From Prevotella sp. (GTDB lineage Bacteria; Bacteroidota; Bacteroidia; Bacteroidales; Dysgonomonadaceae), in NCBI GenBank assembly GCA_031285625.1, contig JAITVV010000018.1:1-64000 (forward strand): 64,000 bases of DNA, written 5' to 3'. The position numbers and the translations under genes are program-made. The notes beneath the pieces are model-generated. The model was not told the DNA's origin and ran no database searches. It was given only the letters and a program-made list of their open reading frames with translations. Below are positions 42,662 through 52,505 of this stretch, piece after piece; within the stretch, counting starts at the first letter, position 1, and each line of letters starts with the position of its first letter.

Positions 42662-43185
42662 ACTTTATAAGAGTGAATGAAAATGATGGATGGTATAAAC
42701 AAATTCTCGAAATTTATAAGCCATCTTTTCCTCTATACGAACAAAGAAACGAAGAGCAGCAGAGAAAGGCTTTTGAAGATAATCGTTATCATCTTTTGGC
42801 AAAACTGGCTGAAAATGATGATTTCAAACTAGCCTCTTTTATTTCATACTGGGATTTTGACAGCTATGTTTATATCGAGCATTTTGCTGTAAATTCAATC
42901 ATGAGAGGTCAAAATATTGGGAGTTCTTCATTAAAGCTATTTGCTGACCTTATTAAGAAGCCTGTTTTATTAGAAATAGATCCTTTAGTCGACGATATTT
43001 CGAAGAGCCGTTTTCATTTTTATGAAAAACTGGGCTATCAATTAAATACTTATAAACATTTTCATCCGGCATATAATCCGGAGTTTAAGCCTCATGAATT
43101 ATTGGTATTGAGCTATCCGGAAAAGATTGATCAAAAGCAATATGACCAATTTCGACATGATTTGGAATATGTTGTCATGAAATGA
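42658..43185 (+). CDS. GNAT family acetyltransferase
   Basis: YIEHFAV...RGQNIG, FYEKLG. Confidence 0.85.
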   Translation: MNFIRVNENDGWYKQILEIYKPSFPLYEQRNEEQQRKAFEDNRYHLLAKLAENDDFKLASFISYWDFDSYVYIEHFAVNSIMRGQNIGSSSLKLFADLIKKPVLLEIDPLVDDISKSRFHFYEKLGYQLNTYKHFHPAYNPEFKPHELLVLSYPEKIDQKQYDQFRHDLEYVVMK

Positions 43186-43187
43186 TT

Positions 43188-43979
43188 TTATCTGCTATCT
43201 TTAAGGTATAAATACCAATAGACGCACCCAACTAGAAGTACACCTCCAACCAGATTGCCTAAGGTGGCAGGTATTAGGTTCTGAATTATAAAGTCACCCC
43301 ATGCTACACCAGCTCCCGAATAGATTGCTGCAGGAATAAAAAACATATTGGCTATAGAGTGTTCATAACCTAGTGTAACAAATAGCATGACTGGAATCCA
43401 GATTCCAATACATTTACCTATGATATCCTTAGATGCATATCCCATCCACATACCTAAACATACCAGCCAGTTAGCGCCGATTCCTTTTATAAAAACAGTG
43501 TAGAAATCTTGATTTACTTTGGCTTCTGCAAGATGATGTAAGTACGATTGCCAAGGCTCTTTATCGAAAAATCCAATACTGGAACTAAACCAATAGGCTA
43601 TTATCTGAGCCCCTAAGAAGTTGAAAATATAAGATAAAGTCAGGAACTTAATGAACGCTGGAATTCGTATTCTATTCTGTAATAATGGTATAGAAAAAGC
43701 TGTGCAATCACTGGTAAATAAATCAGCCCCTGTGAAAGAAACAATAATTAATCCGACAGGAAATAAAGCTCCGGCAATGAATTTTACTAATCCGGGATTC
43801 TCTGTGCCTAGTCCGGGTATCCCACCCGCAACCATAACAGACAACAGCCCTCCAAAGGCAATAAATACCCCACCAAGTATAGCGATAATACAGAACTTTA
43901 TAAGTGATAGATTCATTTTGTAAACACCGGAATTTGCAAACTCCTTTGCGATATCTGTGGGGTCATTATAATTTTTCAT
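43188..43979 (-). CDS. focA: Formate/nitrite transporter (FocA-like)
   Basis: FPVGL, GADLFT, KGIGANWLVC, YEHSIANMF, TLGNLVGG; follows pflA. Confidence 0.88.
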   Translation of the reverse strand: MKNYNDPTDIAKEFANSGVYKMNLSLIKFCIIAILGGVFIAFGGLLSVMVAGGIPGLGTENPGLVKFIAGALFPVGLIIVSFTGADLFTSDCTAFSIPLLQNRIRIPAFIKFLTLSYIFNFLGAQIIAYWFSSSIGFFDKEPWQSYLHHLAEAKVNQDFYTVFIKGIGANWLVCLGMWMGYASKDIIGKCIGIWIPVMLFVTLGYEHSIANMFFIPAAIYSGAGVAWGDFIIQNLIPATLGNLVGGVLLVGCVYWYLYLKDSR

Positions 43980-43994
43980 TATTTACTTTAGATT

Positions 43995-44720
43995 TCAGTA
44001 TATTAGCTTTAGTCCATTATTCCGAAAAATGCTTTCAGCGTTTTCTATTTCGGCTTGGGTAGGAGTCGGTACATCCTTAAGTTTGTATTGCTGTTCTATT
44101 TCTTCCCATTTATGTAATCCCATCTGATGAAAAGGAAGGATATCCACCCTTTCCACATTCTCAAATTTTGACGCATATACAGCCCAATTATTCAAGTCTT
44201 CCGCATCATCAGTAAAACCCGGAACAAGAACATATCTTAGCCATACAGGTTTCTGGATTTCTGACAAATACTCCATAAACCTGAATGTTGGTTCGAGAGG
44301 TCTTGCTGTCAGATTTTTATATTTTTTGGGATTAATATGCTTTATATCGAGTAGAACAAGGTCAGTATATTCCAAAACTTCTTTTACTTTATTATTTAGA
44401 ACATAACCTGATGTATCAACTGCGGTATGTAGTCCCTCAGTTTTGCATAACTTGAATAGTTCAGTGACGAACTCTGACTGTAAAAGAGGTTCACCTCCAG
44501 ATACAGTTACTCCTCCGTTTTTAATAAAGGACTTGATTTTGAGTATATCAGACAGAACTTCTTCAGGTGATAACTCATATTTTTTATCAGCAATATTCCA
44601 TGTATCAGGATTGTGACAATAAAGGCATCTTAGCGGACAGCCTTGCATAAATAATACAAAGCGAATACCTGGTCCGTCTTTAGTGCCGAATGTTTCAAAT
44701 GAATGTATCAATCCCTTCAT
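43995..44720 (-). CDS. pflA: Pyruvate formate-lyase activating enzyme (radical SAM)
   Basis: DGPGIR, CPLRCLYCHNPD, SGGEP, LPFHQMG. Confidence 0.96.
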   Translation of the reverse strand: MKGLIHSFETFGTKDGPGIRFVLFMQGCPLRCLYCHNPDTWNIADKKYELSPEEVLSDILKIKSFIKNGGVTVSGGEPLLQSEFVTELFKLCKTEGLHTAVDTSGYVLNNKVKEVLEYTDLVLLDIKHINPKKYKNLTARPLEPTFRFMEYLSEIQKPVWLRYVLVPGFTDDAEDLNNWAVYASKFENVERVDILPFHQMGLHKWEEIEQQYKLKDVPTPTQAEIENAESIFRNNGLKLIY

Positions 44721-44740
44721 TCCGATAGTTATGAATAGAA

Positions 44741-44773
44741 ATCAGGCAGAAATGGAAGCCCAATCTGCCTGAT
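44741..44773 (-). terminator. Hairpin between pflB and pflA (partial terminator or mRNA stabiliser)
   Basis: atcaggcaga/tctgcctgat 10-bp stem with a weak U tract. Confidence 0.55.
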
Positions 44774-44786
44774 AATAATTATACAA

Positions 44787-47018
44787 TTAGATGGACATAG
44801 TTATTGTCCTGTTTATAACATCTAACTGTTGTTCTCTTGTAAGTTTAATGAAATTAACAGCATAGCCTGATACCCGGATTGTTAACTGAGGATATTGCTC
44901 CGGATGCTCCATAGCATCAATCAATAGTTGCCTGTCAAAAACATTTACATTCAAATGATGTCCTGTCTGCAAGAAATATCCATCCAGTAATCCTGATAGA
45001 TTCTGCGCTTCTTCTTCCTTATTCTTCCCTAATGTATTTGGAGTAATAGCAAATGTATAAGATATACCATCATTTGCGTGTTCGAAAGGAAGTTTTGCTA
45101 CCGATGAAAGTGATGCTACTGCACCCTTGGTATCACGTCCGTGCATTGGATTAGCTCCGGGTGCGAACGGAGTGCCATCACGACGGCCATCAGGTGTATT
45201 ACCTGTTTTCTTTCCGTAAACGACATTAGATGTAATAGTCAATACAGACTGTGTAGGGATTGCATCCTTGTACATCTTACGTTTACGAATTTTGTTCATA
45301 AATGTTTCTACAATGTCTACCGCAAATTGGTCTGTACTATCATCATTATTTCCAAATGGAACATAGTCTTTCTCATTGATATAATCTATTGCATCTCCAT
45401 CAGCATCTCTTACAATACGTACTTTACCATACTTAATTGCTGCAAATGAGTCTGCAATGATGGATAGGCCCGACACGCCGAATGCCTGTGTGCGTACAAT
45501 ATCCACATCGTGAAGAGCCATTTCAAGGGCTTCGTATGAATATTTGTCGTGCATATAGTGGATTATGTTCAGGGCTTTTACATAGGTTTCTGCTACCCAG
45601 TCGAGTGTACGGTCAAATTTTTCCCATACTTCGTCAAAATCCAGATAATCGCCTGTCACTTTCTCTACCCAATGTTTAGGTAATACCTGAGCTTTTGTTT
45701 TTTCATCTTTACCTCCATTTATTGTGTAAAGTAACGCTTTAGGTAAATTGGCACGAGCTCCGAAAAACTGCATCTGATGGCCAATACGCATAGGTGAAAC
45801 ACAACATGCAATACCATAATCATCTCCTAGCTGAGGACGCATCAGATCGTCATTCTCGTATTGAAGGGAAGATGTGTCAATAGATACTTTTGCACAGTAT
45901 TTCTTCCATGGCTCAGGTAAACGGTCACTCCAAAGAATCGTCAGATTCGGTTCTGGAGCAGGTCCCAGATTATAGAGCGTATGCAGCATACGGAAACTGT
46001 TTTTTGTTACCATTGAGCGGCCATTGTTGGTCATACCTCCTATTGACTCCGTAACCCAAACCGGATCTCCTGAGAATAGCTCATTGTATTCACTGGTACG
46101 AAGGAAACGCACAATACGCAGCTTCATAACAAAATGGTCTATCATTTCCTGAGCCTCTTTCTCAGTAATGATACCATTCTTAAGATCGCGTTCGATATAG
46201 ATATCCAAAAAGGTAGTAACACGTCCCAAACTCATCGCAGCACCATTTTGATCTTTGATTGCACCCAGATACCCGAAATATGTCCACTGGATAGCTTCCT
46301 GTGCATTAGTAGCAGGCTTAGATATATCGAACCCATAAGCTGCCGCCATACGCTTAAGCGCTTTTAAGGCCTGTATCTGAGAACTTAATTCTTCACGAAG
46401 ACGGATCAGATCGTCTGTCATAACAATAGGATCACATTCTTTGAATCGTCTTTCACGTTCAACAATCAAACGGTCTACACCATAGAGGGCGACACGGCGA
46501 TAATCACCGATAATACGTCCACGCCCGTATGCATCTGGTAGTCCGGTTAGTAAGCCATTGCTTCTGGCACGACGGATACTATCGGTATATGCAGAGAATA
46601 CACCTTCGTTGTGAGTCCTGCGGTATTTGGAAAATATTTCAGTTGTGATTGGATCCAGTTTATAACCGTATTCTTCGAGACTTTGTTGCACCATACGGAG
46701 CCCTCCATTAGGGAAGATAGCCCTCTTAAGAGGTTTGTCTGCCTGTACACCCACTATCTTTTCCAGATCTTTGTCAATATAGCCTGCCCCATAAGCATCT
46801 ATCTGGGATGGAATCTTAGTTTCGGCATCATAGACACCTTTTTCTTTCTCTATTTTGAACATTTCACTGAGTTTATCCCACAATTTTGTGGTAGCTTCAG
46901 TTGGTCCTTCAAGAAAATTTTCATCACCAGTGTACTCTGTATAATTTTTCAGGATAAAATCGTTCACATCGATCTTATCTTTCCACTTTACTCCTGCAAA
47001 ATCTTTATATGCTTCCAT
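44787..47018 (-). CDS. pflB: Pyruvate formate-lyase (formate C-acetyltransferase)
   Basis: [16 protein letters not shown], adjacent active-site cysteines IACCVS, glycyl-radical motif TIRVSGYAV. Confidence 0.97.
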
Positions 47019-47187
47019 TTATTTAATTATTTATTAAAATATGTTTGTCCTTCTTTATGAAGCTTATCAGGGATAAATGAAGACAAAAAGTATGCCTAAC
47101 AATAGACATAAAAATTAAAATGCTTAAATAAAAAATAATAAAAGAGAATAAGAACACATTTTATATAAAATATATCAGAAGTTCTCC

Positions 47188-47473
47188 AGCTTTATTCCCC
47201 GAAAGCTTTAAACTACGTATTTTGGCAGGTCTTCTGACTTACTCCATCTTTGAGCGCCTTCCCGCTAATACCAATAGTTCTAAATTAATAGTTCAAATAC
47301 CTCCTACTTTTTTTCATGGATAGTTTTTGTTGACCATTAACTGTAACTATTACAGCAGTGGATTGAGTTAACTCAAAGACTTTGGTGGAGCTTACAGCAG
47401 CGGGTCTGTTCCGGATTTACACCGGATTCCCTTTTCACCACTTTGTACGGATGTATAAAGTGACACCAAAATG
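47188..47473 (-). ncRNA. Cobalamin (B12) riboswitch with downstream P13 hairpin
   Basis: Minus strand reads ttttggt...aaagggaatccggtgtaaatccggaacagacccgctgctgtaag...ccactg...gggaagg...agtcagaagacctgcc (B12 box). The P13 loop CGGGGAAU can pair with L5 ACCCG. Confidence 0.93.
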
Positions 47474-47479
47474 TGGCAT

Positions 47480-47510
47480 CAAAGATAAGAATTTTTATGT
47501 AAATCTTCAA
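47480..47510 (-). promoter_or_regulatory. Primary-sigma promoter of the riboswitch-pfl transcript
   Basis: TTG, 20-nt spacer, TATCTTTG (47487-47480), directly before riboswitch P1. Confidence 0.75.
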
Positions 47511-47577
47511 TTAAAATAAATCAAAGACGGATCTGTGGATTTTATGGATATAGATCTATTGTTAAATACTCTGAAAC

Positions 47578-47611
47578 AATGTGGGTCAATAGCTCTCTAT
47601 CAACCCACATT
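47578..47611 (-). terminator. Terminator after susD
   Basis: aatgtgggt/acccacatt stem. Confidence 0.65.
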
Positions 47612-47622
47612 TTACAAATTAA

Positions 47623-49062
47623 TTAATACCCCGGATTCTGTATCAGTTTTGTCGAATTCATGTCGGATATCGGGATAGGTAATATCTCATGAATTCCTTT
47701 TTTGAAACCTCTGAAAGCTAAAACTTCCGCAGCCTTTCCTATTCGAACTAAATCGAACCATCGATGTCCCTCCATAGCTAGTTCTAATCTGCGTTCTTCA
47801 TAAATATTATCTAACGTAGCAGGTTTGGAGCCCAGTCCTACCCTGCTTCTAACCTTATCCAAATAATATTGAGCCTTAGCAAGATCTCCTCCTCCTCTGA
47901 CTATAGCCTCTGCCTCCATAAGATATGTGTCGGCTACGCGGATTTCGATAACATTGAAGTCCCAGTTCAAAGCGGCTGGATATTGGGTATTCACATATTC
48001 TAATTTTGGAGAATATTTATTTGTAAAATAGCCTGTATTTTGGTATCCTGCAGAATATGTAGCACCTTCTGTTTCCACCAGTTTATTTACATCGATAATA
48101 GTGTATGGATAACGTGGATCATTTTCCATTGATTTTACAAAATCAAGGATAACTGGATTAAAACCATACCCGTTGTGATAATATGGTCCTATATAATCCC
48201 GGATACCCAGATAATCACCTAATCGATTGCCAAAATTACTGGCTTCCCCTTTATATGTAACTTCAAAAATAGATTCTGAGTGAAATTTATTTTTAGGATC
48301 AAACAACTTACCAAAATCACTTATTAAAGAATAAAGAGGGGATGAGTTTACTTTTTCGAAATAATCGGCAGCCTCAAGCATTCTGCTTTCATCGTTTTGA
48401 GTTAAAATAACTTTGCCTAATAGTGCATTTCCCGCACCTTTTGTTATTCGTCCTTTTTCATCATCGCTTCTTTCTTCCGGTAGGTCTGGAATGGCTGCTT
48501 TTAGGTCTGTTTCTATCTGAGCATAAACATCCTCAGGCTTCGCTTGTTCAACATCATATACTTCCATTGTCTTCAATACCTCAGTTATTAATGGTACATT
48601 CTTGAAAGAACGCACCAACCAAAAGTTGTAATAAGCTCTTAACCATTTTGCTTCAGCAATGTATTGTTTTTTTAGATTATCCGTCATTCCCGGGATATTA
48701 TCAATCTTTGATAAAAGTACATTACAGCGATAGATTCCCAGGTAAGATCTTTCCCAAATCGATGATTGAGGACCAACACTTTCGTCCAGAGTGTAATTAC
48801 CCCATACCTGAAAATGATTCCAGTCTGCTGCGCCACCACCACCAAGATAACATTCATCAGAAGCAGAAGTTGCTCCCATGACTGCAATAGACCAAATATC
48901 CCTTAATGGCTGATATGCGGCAACTAAAGCTGCAAAGGCCTCCTGAGAATCTTTATAATAATCCGATTCAAGATCTATCCCTTTTGGTTTCACATCCAAA
49001 AAGTCATCGCAACTACAAAATATTAATGTCAACAGACTTATTATTAAAATATATTTTTTCAT
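47623..49062 (-). CDS. SusD/RagB family lipoprotein
   Basis: Lipobox FCSC followed by DDFLD; EAKWLRAYY, ERRLELAMEGHRWFDLVR, QNPGY. Confidence 0.95.
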   Translation of the reverse strand: MKKYILIISLLTLIFCSCDDFLDVKPKGIDLESDYYKDSQEAFAALVAAYQPLRDIWSIAVMGATSASDECYLGGGGAADWNHFQVWGNYTLDESVGPQSSIWERSYLGIYRCNVLLSKIDNIPGMTDNLKKQYIAEAKWLRAYYNFWLVRSFKNVPLITEVLKTMEVYDVEQAKPEDVYAQIETDLKAAIPDLPEERSDDEKGRITKGAGNALLGKVILTQNDESRMLEAADYFEKVNSSPLYSLISDFGKLFDPKNKFHSESIFEVTYKGEASNFGNRLGDYLGIRDYIGPYYHNGYGFNPVILDFVKSMENDPRYPYTIIDVNKLVETEGATYSAGYQNTGYFTNKYSPKLEYVNTQYPAALNWDFNVIEIRVADTYLMEAEAIVRGGGDLAKAQYYLDKVRSRVGLGSKPATLDNIYEERRLELAMEGHRWFDLVRIGKAAEVLAFRGFKKGIHEILPIPISDMNSTKLIQNPGY

Positions 49063-49085: not shown

Positions 49086-52000
49086 TTAAAAAGAAAGATT
49101 TAGACCGAACATGTAGGATCTAGCCTGTGGATATATACCCCTGTCAATACTTTTCGCCATTTCCGGATCGTAACCGGTATATTTTGTAAAAGTTGCGAGG
49201 TTATTTACCGTCATATACACACGTAATCTGTTTATATCTAATTTCTGAGTGATTCTGGATGGGATATTATAGCCTAACTGTATTGTTTTTATCCTGAAGA
49301 ATGCTCCACTTTCTAAATAAAAATCAGAAGGTTTTGTGAAATTCCGGTTAGTATCCGAATCGGTAAGGCGAGGATAACTATTAGATGTTCCCGGGCCTGT
49401 CCATCTGTCAAGTGCTGCTGTACTATAGTTCGCAGTCGGAATATCGAGACGGCGTAATCCCTGGAATATTTTATTTCCTCCTGATCCTTGCCCGAATATG
49501 GAAAGATCGAAATCCTTGTATGTAAGATTTACTGTCAAGCCGTAATACCATGTAGGTATTGATGAACCCAGAAAATCTCTGTCGCCTCCGGATATCTGCC
49601 CATCTCCATCTAAATCTGCAAAGCGGAAATCTCCCGGTTTTGCATTTGGCTGTATAACTTTTCCATCTTTGTTTTTGTAATTATCCACTTCCTCCTGAGT
49701 TTGGAAAATACCCATCGTTTTAAAACCATAGAAAGATGCAATCGGTTGCCCTACAGCTGTTCTTGTAATATTGTAGTCACTAGCTTGGAAAGTATCCCCT
49801 TCAAGATAATCTTTATCATCACCTAGATAGATAACTTCATTTTTGACATGTGAAATATTACCCTTTACATCAAGAAAAACATTACCTAATTGTTTGTGAT
49901 ACCCTAATTCTATCTCAAAGCCTTTGTTATCCATATCTGCGATATTCCCATATGAAGAACCGCTGATACCTACATATTTAGGATAGCTTACAGCTAATAA
50001 CATATCTCTGGTTTGCTTTTTATAGACATCTACAGATAGATCGAAATTCTCAAGAATTCGCATATCAACACCAATGTTTGTTTGTGATGTTTTTTCCCAT
50101 TTCAGATCCGGATTTGCCAGGCCGTTCGGGCTATAACCAATGTGTATATTATTATCTGTGCCGAATATATAGTTTCTCCCGCTGGATATAGTAGATACAT
50201 AACTGAACGCTCCAAAATTGTCATTTCCTGTTACACCATAAGAAAGACGCAGCTTGAGTGTATTTATAATATCACTTTTCCAAAAACTTTCGCGAGATGG
50301 TACCCATCCTGCCTGCACGGAAGGAAACGTTCCGTAACGGTTGTTCTCTCCAAATCTGGAAGAACCATCGACACGTATAATTCCGGTAAACAGATATTTT
50401 TCTTTGTAGTTATATGATGCACGTCCAAAGAAAGAACTTATCCGGTATGGTTGATCTTCAAATCCTGTAGCTATTTTATTTTCATTTGATAATGAATAGT
50501 TTAGTGATGCATCATCGAAATTATCTGCCGGAATTCCCCGGAATTTACCGGAAAGACCATCCGCACTTCTGTCTTGTATGCTGTTTCCTACCATACCCGA
50601 AACAAAATGATCTCCAATGGCTTTTGAATATGAAGCTGTATTTTCCAGTGACCATAACAACGTTTTTTTCAGGGAACGATCATATATCGTTTTTTCAAGA
50701 TTTGTTTGAACAGCATTAAGATAATATAGAGGTGTGAAGCTTTCATCTCCCCAGAAAGTCATTTTTGCTGCTATCTGTGATCTGACTTTTAGGTCTTTGA
50801 GAGGTTCTATCTCGAGATAAGCGTTAGATATAATATTATGTGTCCATGCGTAATTTCCATCCTTCGTTTTTATATAAGCAAGAGGATTGGTGATTTCATT
50901 GGCAACATACTTAGATATTCCATAAGGATATCCGTTTTTGTCTCTCATTACAGGTTGTGAGGCGTAGGGATTCGACTCCATTTCCTGTGGGTCAGTAATA
51001 ATTACAGGTGTTATTGGGTCAAGGTTTATTGCAGAATTCAATACGCCCCCTCTTTCTGTATTGGCACTTATATTATTACTGTTCTTTACATAAGAATAGG
51101 TTGCATTTGCTCCTAATCTAAGCCAAGGTTTAATTTTATGCGTTGTGTTTAGTCTGAATGTAAGACGTTTATATCTGGCTGCATCAGGAGTTACAATTCC
51201 TTCCTGATCAAAGTAACTGAAAGAAGAATAATATGTAGATATCTGATTACCTCCCGAAAGACTGAATTCATGATTTTGAATTTTTGCACTATTACTGAAT
51301 ATAACATCCTGCCAATCGGTTCCCTTCCCTAATGATTCTACATTATCGAAAACAAGCCCTTTTCCTGCTGCCTGAGAAGATTCATTCCTTAAGGTTGCAT
51401 ATTGTGTTGCATTCAACAGATCTAACTTTTTATCCGGTGCCTGTAATCCAAAATATCCATTATAACTTAATCTCATTTTACCTTCTTTTCCTGATTTTGT
51501 AGTTACCAGAATTACACCACTTGCTGCTTTTGTTCCGTAAATTGCAGCGGAAGCCGCATCTTTCAATACCTCAATAGATGCAATATCGGATTGATTCAGG
51601 AAATTTATATCTCCAATAGGGATAACCTGTCCGTCTACTACATACAGTGGATCACTATTGTTAATTGAAGTTACTCCACGCACACGCACAGTGGCGTCTG
51701 CTCCCGGCATACCGGAACTGCTAATAACACTCACGCCTGATGTCCGTCCTTGCAACGATTGTTCAAGACGCATAACTGGCATATTTTCGATGTCAGAACT
51801 GGTGATTTTAGAAATTGAGCCTGTTACAACACTCTTCTTTTCAATCCCATATCCTACCACTACTACTTCTTCTAATAGTTGAGTGTTTTCCTGCATGACA
51901 ATGGAGAAATCTGTTTTGTCTCCGATTTTAATCTGCTGATCAATATATCCCACATAGGTGATTTTGATAGTGGATGCTTCGGATGATACAGAAAGTGTAA

Positions 52001-52505
52001 ATTTACCCTCGATATCAGTCATCGTACCGTTGGTTGTTCCCACTTCAACAACGCTGGCTCCGATTATTGCTTCATTGTTTTGATCTCTGACTATACCTTG
52101 AATTATTTTGGTTAGTTGAGTAATCTGGAGTTTTTCCTTCTTCATTAGTAGAATGTTATTCCCTTCCATAGCATAAACAATATCTGTATTCTCGAATATT
52201 TTGGAAAGGATATTGGCTACAGAAGTATTCTCTGTCTTCATTGTAATATGCGAAGACAGATTTACATTATCATTGTTATATACAAACAGATAATCCGTTT
52301 GGGATTCAATTTGGTCAATAATCACCTTGATTTGTTGGTTAGATGCATTGATATTGACACGTGCAGTCTGTGAATTCATTGTTGTGGCAAAACAACAGGA
52401 AATGCAAAAGACTAAAAAGACTAAGGTTAATTTCATGATTCTAAAGAAATGTTTGTTTTTTGCTAACAATTCGGGTATAGTAGTCCCTACAAGTTTTTTT
52501 TTCAT
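49086..52505 (-). CDS. SusC-like TonB-dependent transducer with N-terminal STN domain
   Basis: IESQTDYLFVY (STN), DIASIEVLKDAASAAIYG, NPDLKWEKT, terminal Phe. Confidence 0.95.
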   Translation of the reverse strand: MKKKLVGTTIPELLAKNKHFFRIMKLTLVFLVFCISCCFATTMNSQTARVNINASNQQIKVIIDQIESQTDYLFVYNNDNVNLSSHITMKTENTSVANILSKIFENTDIVYAMEGNNILLMKKEKLQITQLTKIIQGIVRDQNNEAIIGASVVEVGTTNGTMTDIEGKFTLSVSSEASTIKITYVGYIDQQIKIGDKTDFSIVMQENTQLLEEVVVVGYGIEKKSVVTGSISKITSSDIENMPVMRLEQSLQGRTSGVSVISSSGMPGADATVRVRGVTSINNSDPLYVVDGQVIPIGDINFLNQSDIASIEVLKDAASAAIYGTKAASGVILVTTKSGKEGKMRLSYNGYFGLQAPDKKLDLLNATQYATLRNESSQAAGKGLVFDNVESLGKGTDWQDVIFSNSAKIQNHEFSLSGGNQISTYYSSFSYFDQEGIVTPDAARYKRLTFRLNTTHKIKPWLRLGANATYSYVKNSNNISANTERGGVLNSAINLDPITPVIITDPQEMESNPYASQPVMRDKNGYPYGISKYVANEITNPLAYIKTKDGNYAWTHNIISNAYLEIEPLKDLKVRSQIAAKMTFWGDESFTPLYYLNAVQTNLEKTIYDRSLKKTLLWSLENTASYSKAIGDHFVSGMVGNSIQDRSADGLSGKFRGIPADNFDDASLNYSLSNENKIATGFEDQPYRISSFFGRASYNYKEKYLFTGIIRVDGSSRFGENNRYGTFPSVQAGWVPSRESFWKSDIINTLKLRLSYGVTGNDNFGAFSYVSTISSGRNYIFGTDNNIHIGYSPNGLANPDLKWEKTSQTNIGVDMRILENFDLSVDVYKKQTRDMLLAVSYPKYVGISGSSYGNIADMDNKGFEIELGYHKQLGNVFLDVKGNISHVKNEVIYLGDDKDYLEGDTFQASDYNITRTAVGQPIASFYGFKTMGIFQTQEEVDNYKNKDGKVIQPNAKPGDFRFADLDGDGQISGGDRDFLGSSIPTWYYGLTVNLTYKDFDLSIFGQGSGGNKIFQGLRRLDIPTANYSTAALDRWTGPGTSNSYPRLTDSDTNRNFTKPSDFYLESGAFFRIKTIQLGYNIPSRITQKLDINRLRVYMTVNNLATFTKYTGYDPEMAKSIDRGIYPQARSYMFGLNLSF

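Follow-up and report, generated by a model that had tools for sequence, protein, structure and literature searches.

A 64,000-nucleotide stretch of bacterial DNA (hereafter the window: positions 1 to 64,000 of contig JAITVV010000018.1, assembly GCA_031285625.1, deposited as Prevotella sp.) encodes pyruvate formate-lyase (PFL), its activating enzyme and a channel protein as a gene series, pflB-pflA-focA, that is preceded by a cobalamin (B12) riboswitch (Table 1). The entire riboswitch-pfl locus lies on the minus strand, and the span of 43188-47510 given for it in an earlier note on this DNA proved correct. The distances are 188 nucleotides (nt) from the aptamer to pflB, 66 nt from pflB to pflA and 15 nt from pflA to the focA-like gene. 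PflB possesses the pair of cysteines that the earlier note had taken as the mark of a true PFL (Cys405-Cys406), as well as the glycyl-radical motif RVSGY at residues 715-719; together with an equivalog-level profile score and an adjoining cognate activase, itself bearing the CxxxCxxC motif at residue 28, these features place it in the pyruvate formate-lyase class. The supposed formate channel is a member of the FNT family as claimed, but with 179.3 bits it falls under the cut-off of the FocA equivalog TIGR04060 (290.1 bits), and formate is its predicted substrate by virtue of its place in the pfl operon.

Among named relatives, PflB is 94% identical to its counterparts in Dysgonomonas gadei and D. 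termitidis, which places the window in the genus Dysgonomonas. The nearest PflB proteins beyond this genus are those of Leptotrichia and Fusobacterium, at 77-79% identity. Near-identical DNA is present in sequencing runs from the guts of termites, ants and other insects.

An Rfam cmscan of the whole window returned a single match at the gathering threshold, to the cobalamin riboswitch family RF00174, which covers model positions 1-189 of 189, exceeds the gathering score of 31.5 and has an 83-nt insertion in the variable P6 extension. The earlier report of a complete B12 riboswitch ahead of pflB-pflA-focA on the same strand is thereby confirmed. The first base of the aptamer is flush with the motif TAnnTTTG, which we take to be the Bacteroidetes -7 promoter consensus, and the interval between aptamer and pflB has no same-strand open reading frame of at least 80 amino acids (aa). 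The aptamer thus occupies the position of a 5' leader element, between a promoter motif and the pfl genes on the same strand. Very likely a pflB-pflA-focA transcript starts directly 5' of it, with a leader of ~470 nt whose initial ~280 nt are the riboswitch.

Table 1. Features of the riboswitch-pfl locus and its surroundings in the window, and a second riboswitch locus of the same genome
Feature	Coordinates	Strand	Remarks
FNT-family formate/nitrite channel, focA-like, 263 aa	43188..43979	-	TIGR00790 237.6 bits, cut-off 232.3
pflA, PFL-activating radical-SAM enzyme, 241 aa	43995..44720	-	TIGR02493 337.6 bits, cut-off 231.75
pflB-pflA spacer: G+C-rich hairpin, then T-rich sequence	44721..44786	-	read from sequence
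pflB, pyruvate formate-lyase, 743 aa	44787..47018	-	TIGR01255 equivalog 1154.7 bits, cut-off 994.2
Start-proximal hairpin	47044..47087	-	contains 47059-47074, complementary to P13 5' half and loop
Terminator-like hairpin, 8 bp, then U tract	47083..47110	-	-7.5 kcal/mol; putative function
P13-type hairpin, loop CGGGG complementary to L5 ACCCG	47188..47208	-	directly 3' of aptamer
Cobalamin riboswitch aptamer RF00174, complete	47207..47485	-	93.6 bits, E 5.5e-22
Bacteroidetes-type -7 promoter motif TAnnTTTG	47480..47487	-	flush with first base of aptamer; read from sequence
Long hairpin after susD, 15+15 bp, between upstream operon and riboswitch promoter	47578..47611	-	read from sequence
susD-like gene, upstream	47623..49062	-	
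susC-like gene, upstream	49086..52505	-	
Cobalamin riboswitch of the ppc locus (locus C24:31000-38300)	C24:37548-37772 (L109 6549-6773)	-	elsewhere in the window's genome

Architecture of the leader and predicted switching

An alignment of 15 orthologous pfl-linked aptamers reveals nearly invariant B12-box columns and compensatory double changes at 23 of the 45 consensus pairs. The window aptamer is only 64% identical to that of D. gadei and differs from it by 7 compensatory pair changes, and its score is on par with the 92-93 bits of the D. gadei copies; it forms 38 of the 45 consensus pairs, the fewest of the 15 (range 38-45). It is very probably a working-type adenosylcobalamin riboswitch, with ligand binding as a prediction. 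In each of the 15 distinct pfl-linked leaders the TAnnTTTG motif sits exactly where the aptamer begins at its 5' side.

Natural deletions bear on the question of which promoter drives pflB. In D. termitidis (L007/L028, 503 nt upstream of pflB) the core of the aptamer has been deleted from a leader that is otherwise nearly identical to that of D. gadei: the promoter motif, the last ~55 aptamer profile positions, the P13 hairpin and the whole remaining leader have been kept, and no motif other than the retained one occurs within 500 nt of pflB. That the promoter and leader outlived the aptamer argues that the promoter 5' of the riboswitch is the pfl promoter, though a weak, non-canonical start in the spacer is possible. 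The earlier note had named transcription of pfl from a promoter of its own downstream of the riboswitch as evidence against regulation; a motif search of the window's 188-nt spacer found no second TAnnTTTG. Such a second motif does occur less than 90 nt from the ATG in two other leaders (L022 at -43 and L040 at -87). A further aptamer loss is seen in Dysgonomonas sp. 521 (L034, 2711-2841), where 131 nt of the riboswitch remain (32.8 bits) without P13; this genome also lacks the class III ribonucleotide reductase NrdD.

The hairpin directly 3' of the aptamer presumably corresponds to P13 of the cobalamin riboswitches, whose loop forms the L5-L13 kissing interaction. The complementarity of ACCCG and CGGGG that had suggested this contact is indeed present and P13 is intact, so that the kissing loop stands as a predicted tertiary contact. 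The hairpin is found in 14 of the 15 pfl-linked leaders, and other riboswitches of the genus, those of btuB-type, cbi and nrdD genes, have it as well. In the riboswitch of the ppc locus, a paralog in the same genome, L5 reads UCGCG and L13 CGCG, which amounts to a compensatory change; some riboswitch copies have CGAGG, a poorer partner for L5. The kissing-loop riboswitches E. coli btuB and env8 have the same hairpin 3' of the aptamer with a loop complementary to L5. Their P13 holds the ribosome-binding site, whereas in the window 170 nt separate P13 from the start codon. As Bacteroidetes, moreover, do not rely on Shine-Dalgarno pairing, the output is more likely to be termination or RNA stability.

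The remainder of the leader suggests how termination might be achieved. The 5' half and loop of P13 can form a duplex with 47074..47059, within the start-proximal hairpin, of -17.8 kcal/mol, a value equalled by none of 200 shuffled sequences. The equivalent complement is also significant in the D. gadei clade (1 of 200 shuffles), where it abuts the 5' arm of the corresponding hairpin, and it is marginal in G019 and G022. The terminator-like hairpin shares its 3' arm and U tract with the D. gadei clade. We infer from this that 47059-47074 may pair alternatively with P13, and the complement and the terminator-like hairpin would together fit an anti-terminator scheme. With B12 bound, the aptamer would lock the L5-L13 kissing loop and close P13; the downstream hairpin and U tract would then form and the operon would be shut off. 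Without B12, the 5' half of P13 would pair elsewhere in the leader and transcription would read through. Two observations count against this scheme. The terminator-like hairpin is weak (-7.5 kcal/mol) and absent from the output of a simple terminator scan, which requires 3 G-C pairs. Anti-P13 pairing as a general property of these leaders had to be rejected, since significance is confined to the window genome and the D. gadei clade and, apart from the marginal cases of G019 and G022, no such complement is seen in the remaining leaders examined. Because of the latter, we offer the anti-terminator mechanism as an inference.

The direction of control can be argued independently of these details. 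Promoter, aptamer and P13 are arranged in the pfl riboswitch as they are in the riboswitches that precede TonB-receptor/BtuF, cbi and nrdD genes in these genomes, and to our knowledge all known cis-acting cobalamin riboswitches switch their genes off. By this analogy repression by B12 is probable, and we regard the element as very likely an OFF switch. That it acts as a functional cis-regulator of pflBA-focA is likewise very likely.

Distribution of the riboswitch-pfl arrangement

The genus was surveyed in 35 species genomes, including the window's own (G000: 4.84 Mb in 96 contigs, 94% complete), and 29 of the 35 carry this PflB. Coordinates of riboswitches and pflB were matched and the upstream regions scanned with Rfam. 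An intact riboswitch directly before pflB was found in 13 of the 27 genomes in which the arrangement can be judged (G000, G002, G003, G005, G007, G012, G014, G016, G019, G021, G022, G324 and G325); two others retain a deletion remnant (G017 and G326), 12 have no riboswitch before pflB, and in the remaining two pflB lies at a contig end. D. macrotermitis (L032) and D. capnocytophagoides (L040) likewise carry the riboswitch before pflB. The pairing is therefore genuine and conserved among relatives, as the survey proposed in the earlier note was meant to establish, if in a patchy manner.

The order-wide sample comprised 301 Bacteroidales genomes, 46 of them with PflB (G300 and G309 were left out and four were examined separately). 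No cobalamin match was obtained in any of 40 further pflB upstream regions, 39 from other Bacteroidales and one from G181. The riboswitch is also missing before pflB in 8 more Bacteroidales loci (L025, L026, L039, L042, L044, L047, L048 and L050) and in all 11 loci from Fusobacteria, some of these loci having less than 520 nt upstream; the scan did not extend to loci L064-L107, which belong to other phyla. Among the sampled Bacteroidales, then, the pairing is seen only in Dysgonomonas.

The affinities of the protein itself are of separate interest. PflB of Dysgonomonas is 77-79% identical to the proteins of Fusobacteria and Leptotrichia (L051-L062) and 55-58% identical to those of most other sampled Bacteroidales (L118-L157), with a few Bacteroidales proteins at 65-67% or 79-80%. 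This pattern of identities suggests transfer between phyla.

Some of the leaders that lack the riboswitch are nevertheless long. L011/L046, L010/L033 and L016 have a single promoter motif, 256-291 nt ahead of pflB, and these leaders have no Rfam match at the gathering threshold. In G006 a long pflB leader of the riboswitch-less kind directly follows a riboswitch-controlled nrdDG.

Candidate reasons for the presumed cobalamin control of PFL

PFL has no B12-dependent counterpart, as the earlier note had pointed out, and the B12-dependent enzymes found in G000 are methionine synthase MetH, methylmalonyl-CoA mutase MutAB and ribonucleotide reductase NrdJ. G000 has five cobalamin riboswitches. Three precede ordinary targets, namely genes for a TonB receptor with BtuF and CbiK, for a tetrapyrrole methylase with BtuF and FecCD, and for a TonB receptor with a DUF5074 protein; the remaining two precede pfl and a group encoding a Cys_rich_CWC protein, a 576-aa phosphoenolpyruvate carboxykinase (PEPCK)-like protein and phosphoenolpyruvate (PEP) carboxylase. 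The genome has one PFL-like gene and, in answer to another point raised earlier, no second copy. For comparison of the gene inventory 24 other Dysgonomonas genomes were searched alongside G000.

The comparative data point to a link with the ribonucleotide reductases, which the earlier note had not considered. G000 and each of the 24 comparison genomes encode an NrdJ of ~850 aa. Of 13 genomes with an NrdD above the cut-off, 12 have a cobalamin riboswitch ahead of nrdD. In 7 genomes nrdDG adjoins the pfl operon, and three gene orders occur among them: riboswitch-nrdDG-riboswitch-pflBA-focA in G003, G005 and G325, riboswitch-pflBA-riboswitch-nrdDG in G019, G022 and G324, and riboswitch-nrdDG-pflBA in G006. 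In D. gadei, G003 and G325, nrdD (NF005497, 902.7 bits) and nrdG (TIGR02491, 167 bits) stand just upstream of the pfl riboswitch with a riboswitch of their own before them. A class I reductase occurs additionally in 5 of the 24 other genomes, and its genes are just downstream of a cobalamin riboswitch in all four of those with listed riboswitch coordinates.

The NrdD proteins of these relatives appear to be of the formate-dependent class III type (NrdD1), to judge by their motifs and their kinship to NrdD of P. copri. D. gadei NrdD matches the P. copri enzyme (8p23) with 1156 bits and ~80% identity, against 196 bits for T4 NrdD and 31 bits for T. maritima NrdD, and it keeps the MGC finger loop, the RGN(L) motif and an asparagine instead of the third cysteine. 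In the pertinent literature, the P. copri enzyme is described as requiring formate and as having Asn435 in place of the third cysteine (PMC11226230), formate is given as the electron donor of the classic class III enzymes (PMC4493059, PMC4390871), and B12 elements before nrdDG in NrdJ-bearing genomes are presented as an established pattern (PMC545781).

These observations raise the possibility that the standing ribonucleotide reductase of Dysgonomonas would be the B12-dependent NrdJ, with NrdDG as a B12-independent, riboswitch-controlled back-up that would need formate as its stoichiometric reductant. As PFL is the obvious internal source of formate, it would make sense for pfl and the formate channel to be placed under the same signal as nrdDG, the two operons forming a B12-sparing module. 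Of the origins considered for the pfl switch, a supply of formate to the class III reductase has the best support, and we hold it to have an even chance of being the right one.

Several facts weigh against this proposal. First, neither NrdD nor NrdG was found in G000, in a search with TIGR02487 or by tblastn with the D. gadei proteins, though its pfl riboswitch is intact; the assembly is 94% complete, and the genes may have been lost or may lie in the unassembled 6%. Its switch could be either an intact survivor of an nrdDG-pfl module or a servant of another need for formate, such as the formation of 10-formyl-tetrahydrofolate (10-formyl-THF) via Fhs, or of fermentation. Second, NrdD is present in 11 of the 13 genomes with an intact pfl riboswitch as against 4 of the 12 without one, but this co-distribution loses significance when the relatedness of the genomes is taken into account. 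A PflB tree with 22 rows from the genus shows frequent changes in both traits (at least 8 and 7 times), and an independent-pairs test yielded 5 pairs, of which 3.4 were concordant and 0.2 discordant, with a median p of 0.25. G013 and G329 (state undecided), G021 (two partial copies), G324, G328, G331 and G332 were left out of this test, and the weak NrdD-like matches of G008 and G016 were coded as absent. Third, there are plain mismatches: NrdD is encoded in G017, whose pfl aptamer is lost, in G181, G331 and G332, which have PflB but no pfl riboswitch, and in G018, which has no PflB.

The second unusual riboswitch of G000 opens a broader view. It is followed in order by genes for a 72-aa Cys_rich_CWC protein, a 576-aa P-loop protein and PEP carboxylase; the P-loop protein belongs to no Pfam family, and the Atlas clusters containing it are automatically named PEP carboxykinase. 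The locus with its riboswitch is conserved in at least 8 genomes. The riboswitch lies on the same strand as ppc at a distance of 2.46-2.67 kb in G002, G005, G007, G008, G013, G019 and G022, and of 3.86 kb in G014. PEP carboxylase itself is present in all 24 other Dysgonomonas genomes and in only 2 of 16 other families. It is conceivable that Dysgonomonas has come to use the adenosylcobalamin riboswitch for metabolic signalling on a global scale, such that PFL with its channel, the PEPCK-like protein with PEP carboxylase, and the class III and class I reductases would form one B12-sparing programme, and that genomes without nrdDG would have kept the pfl switch since B12 status directly sets the route of fermentation at the PEP-pyruvate junction and more than the supply of reductant for DNA synthesis depends on it. 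We consider so comprehensive a scheme possible but rather doubtful.

A purely fermentative explanation had been put forward in the earlier note, by which B12 shortage blocks methylmalonyl-CoA mutase and pyruvate is rerouted to formate. In its extended form, the mutase would stop, the succinate-to-propionate branch would close, and B12-independent routes from PEP and pyruvate would be derepressed, with PFL on one side and the PEPCK-like protein and PEP carboxylase supplying oxaloacetate on the other. The check for mutAB that the earlier note had called for gave a positive result in G000, and the enzyme is present in all 24 other genomes as well. The idea has the merit of accounting for a genome in which the pfl riboswitch is intact although nrdDG was not found, and the ppc locus, with its recurrent spacing, lends it some weight. 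However, MutAB is universal in the genus while the pfl riboswitch is patchy, and therefore dependence on the mutase alone does not predict the riboswitch. Pyruvate:ferredoxin oxidoreductase, also present in G000, offers another sink for pyruvate. By our own reasoning the choice between succinate and propionate is redox-neutral and PFL yields no CO2, so that no stoichiometric benefit can be derived. In the ppc locus the genes are 149-262 nt apart, enough to accommodate promoters of their own, and the nrdDG neighborhood is left unexplained. The rerouting of pyruvate by a mutase block is thus not specifically supported, and we regard the fermentative explanation as unlikely.

The earlier note had alternatively suggested that one-carbon units are supplied via formate. 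When B12 is short, MetH would stall and folate would be trapped as 5-methyl-THF, and formate from PFL would via Fhs maintain 10-formyl-THF for purine synthesis. MetH is the only methionine synthase found in G000, MetE not having been found, and Fhs is present. The explanation would also apply to a genome without NrdD, and since G000 has no ZTP riboswitch another signal would be needed there. ZTP riboswitches on pfl in other phyla follow a parallel logic. Yet Fhs still requires free THF, the adjacency of nrdDG is again unaccounted for, and the inventory of MetH, MetE and Fhs is that of a single genome, G000. A search of G000 for PurT, which would use formate without folate, gave only weak ATP-grasp matches and no PurT. 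We think the suggestion possible but quite unlikely as the origin of the switch.

Finally, the element could be a decaying leftover, for instance of an nrdDG-pfl cluster, with pfl transcribed from an unrecognised spacer promoter or by constitutive read-through; the aptamer losses in D. termitidis and sp. 521, the absence of nrdDG from G000, the low number of consensus pairs in the window copy and the start-proximal motifs of L022 and L040 would agree with this, but the full-length match equal in score to the D. gadei copies, the intact P13 with its L5-L13 complementarity, the compensatory changes at such low sequence identity, the lack of TAnnTTTG in the window spacer and the retention of the upstream promoter as the only recognisable one where the aptamer is lost make it very improbable.

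Relation to known systems and further observations

The RNA is an ordinary member of RF00174, and the new part is its target, by which a known switch and a known logic would be extended to a co-substrate supplier or a fermentation enzyme in one genus. Its closest parallels are the riboswitches on B12-independent isozymes (nrdDG, nrdAB/EF and metE), which share both the RNA family and the logic of repressing what is needed only without B12. This pattern, as set out in PMC545781, is matched in Dysgonomonas by the nrdDG and class I reductase genes beside a universal NrdJ. The pfl operon falls outside the isozyme class, there being no B12-dependent enzyme of the same reaction in G000, and works alongside it: if formate for NrdD is indeed the reason for the switch, PFL would supply the isozyme's co-substrate and would be a second-order member of the regulon.

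The riboswitches of Bacteroidales B12-uptake loci (TonB-dependent receptor, BtuF, BtuG-type) have the same promoter-aptamer-P13 layout as those of G000 before the TonB-receptor/BtuF/CbiK and TonB-receptor/DUF5074 genes; they target uptake or biosynthesis, whereas the gene targeted here encodes an enzyme central to fermentation. Pfl genes are usually associated with another RNA, the ZTP (pfl motif) riboswitch RF01750, which likewise occurs in pfl leaders and links formate production to a cofactor-related shortage. It differs in its aptamer and ligand and is an ON switch responding to a lack of 10-formyl-THF, whereas the present leaders have a cobalamin aptamer and a presumed OFF switch. The ZTP riboswitch was rejected as the leader element, as it has no match in the window, in G000 or in the scanned pflB upstream regions.

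The earlier note knew of no description of this pairing, and a full-text search of the literature found nothing relevant on a cobalamin riboswitch with pfl or on Dysgonomonas with riboswitches, which leaves it apparently undescribed. The main text of PMC3766115, a large survey of riboswitch regulons, sorts the cobalamin regulon into four categories, biosynthesis, B12 transport, cobalt transport and isozymes. Pfl fits into none of them, and neither 'pfl' nor 'formate' occurs in that main text. Cobalamin control of pfl would add a layer to the regulon, namely the supply line (formate) of a back-up enzyme, or a fermentation route. If the proposed control is real, the availability of a vitamin in the gut community could directly alter the release of formate by a fermenter, and formate is a currency for methanogens and acetogens in the guts of termites and other insects, where the DNA of this organism occurs. 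NrdJ (C52:134140-135996) is the only ribonucleotide reductase found in G000, which has no class I match; if it is truly the sole one, the organism would be unable to make DNA without corrinoid. The sister species provide natural controls, in that their shared leader comes with a whole aptamer, with part of one or with none, and several of the carriers have been cultured (D. gadei, D. capnocytophagoides and D. macrotermitis).

The insulating terminator that the earlier note had placed after susD is borne out as far as the hairpin at ~47611..47578 goes; its T-run is poor and it is absent from the terminator-scan list. The hairpin in the pflB-pflA spacer could act as a partial terminator and in this way determine the ratio of pflB to pflA. 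Among four RNA-labelled runs compared, a 7.3-kb Logan contig from an RNA library covers 43000-47251 at ~98% identity, while a 191-nt contig bridges 47222-47411 and another covers 47382-47800; such contigs reveal gene order in other samples only, and transcripts, their starts and their levels cannot be read off from them.

Other genomes of the genus have further arrangements of riboswitches. A gene for a 698-aa class I large subunit (G002:C22:49523, G007:C106:7847, G013:C5:7039-8592 and G014:C2:79024) follows a same-strand cobalamin riboswitch at a distance of 1.2-1.4 kb in four genomes, and the class I large-subunit gene of G021 lies on a short contig. In G021 a second cobalamin riboswitch (L027 2394-2594 +) points away from the pfl one towards a gene resembling those of iron-containing alcohol dehydrogenases, and in G019 and G022 a second riboswitch (L020 4266-4449 +) diverges from the pfl one towards a gene for a membrane protein with a faint ThrE-like match.

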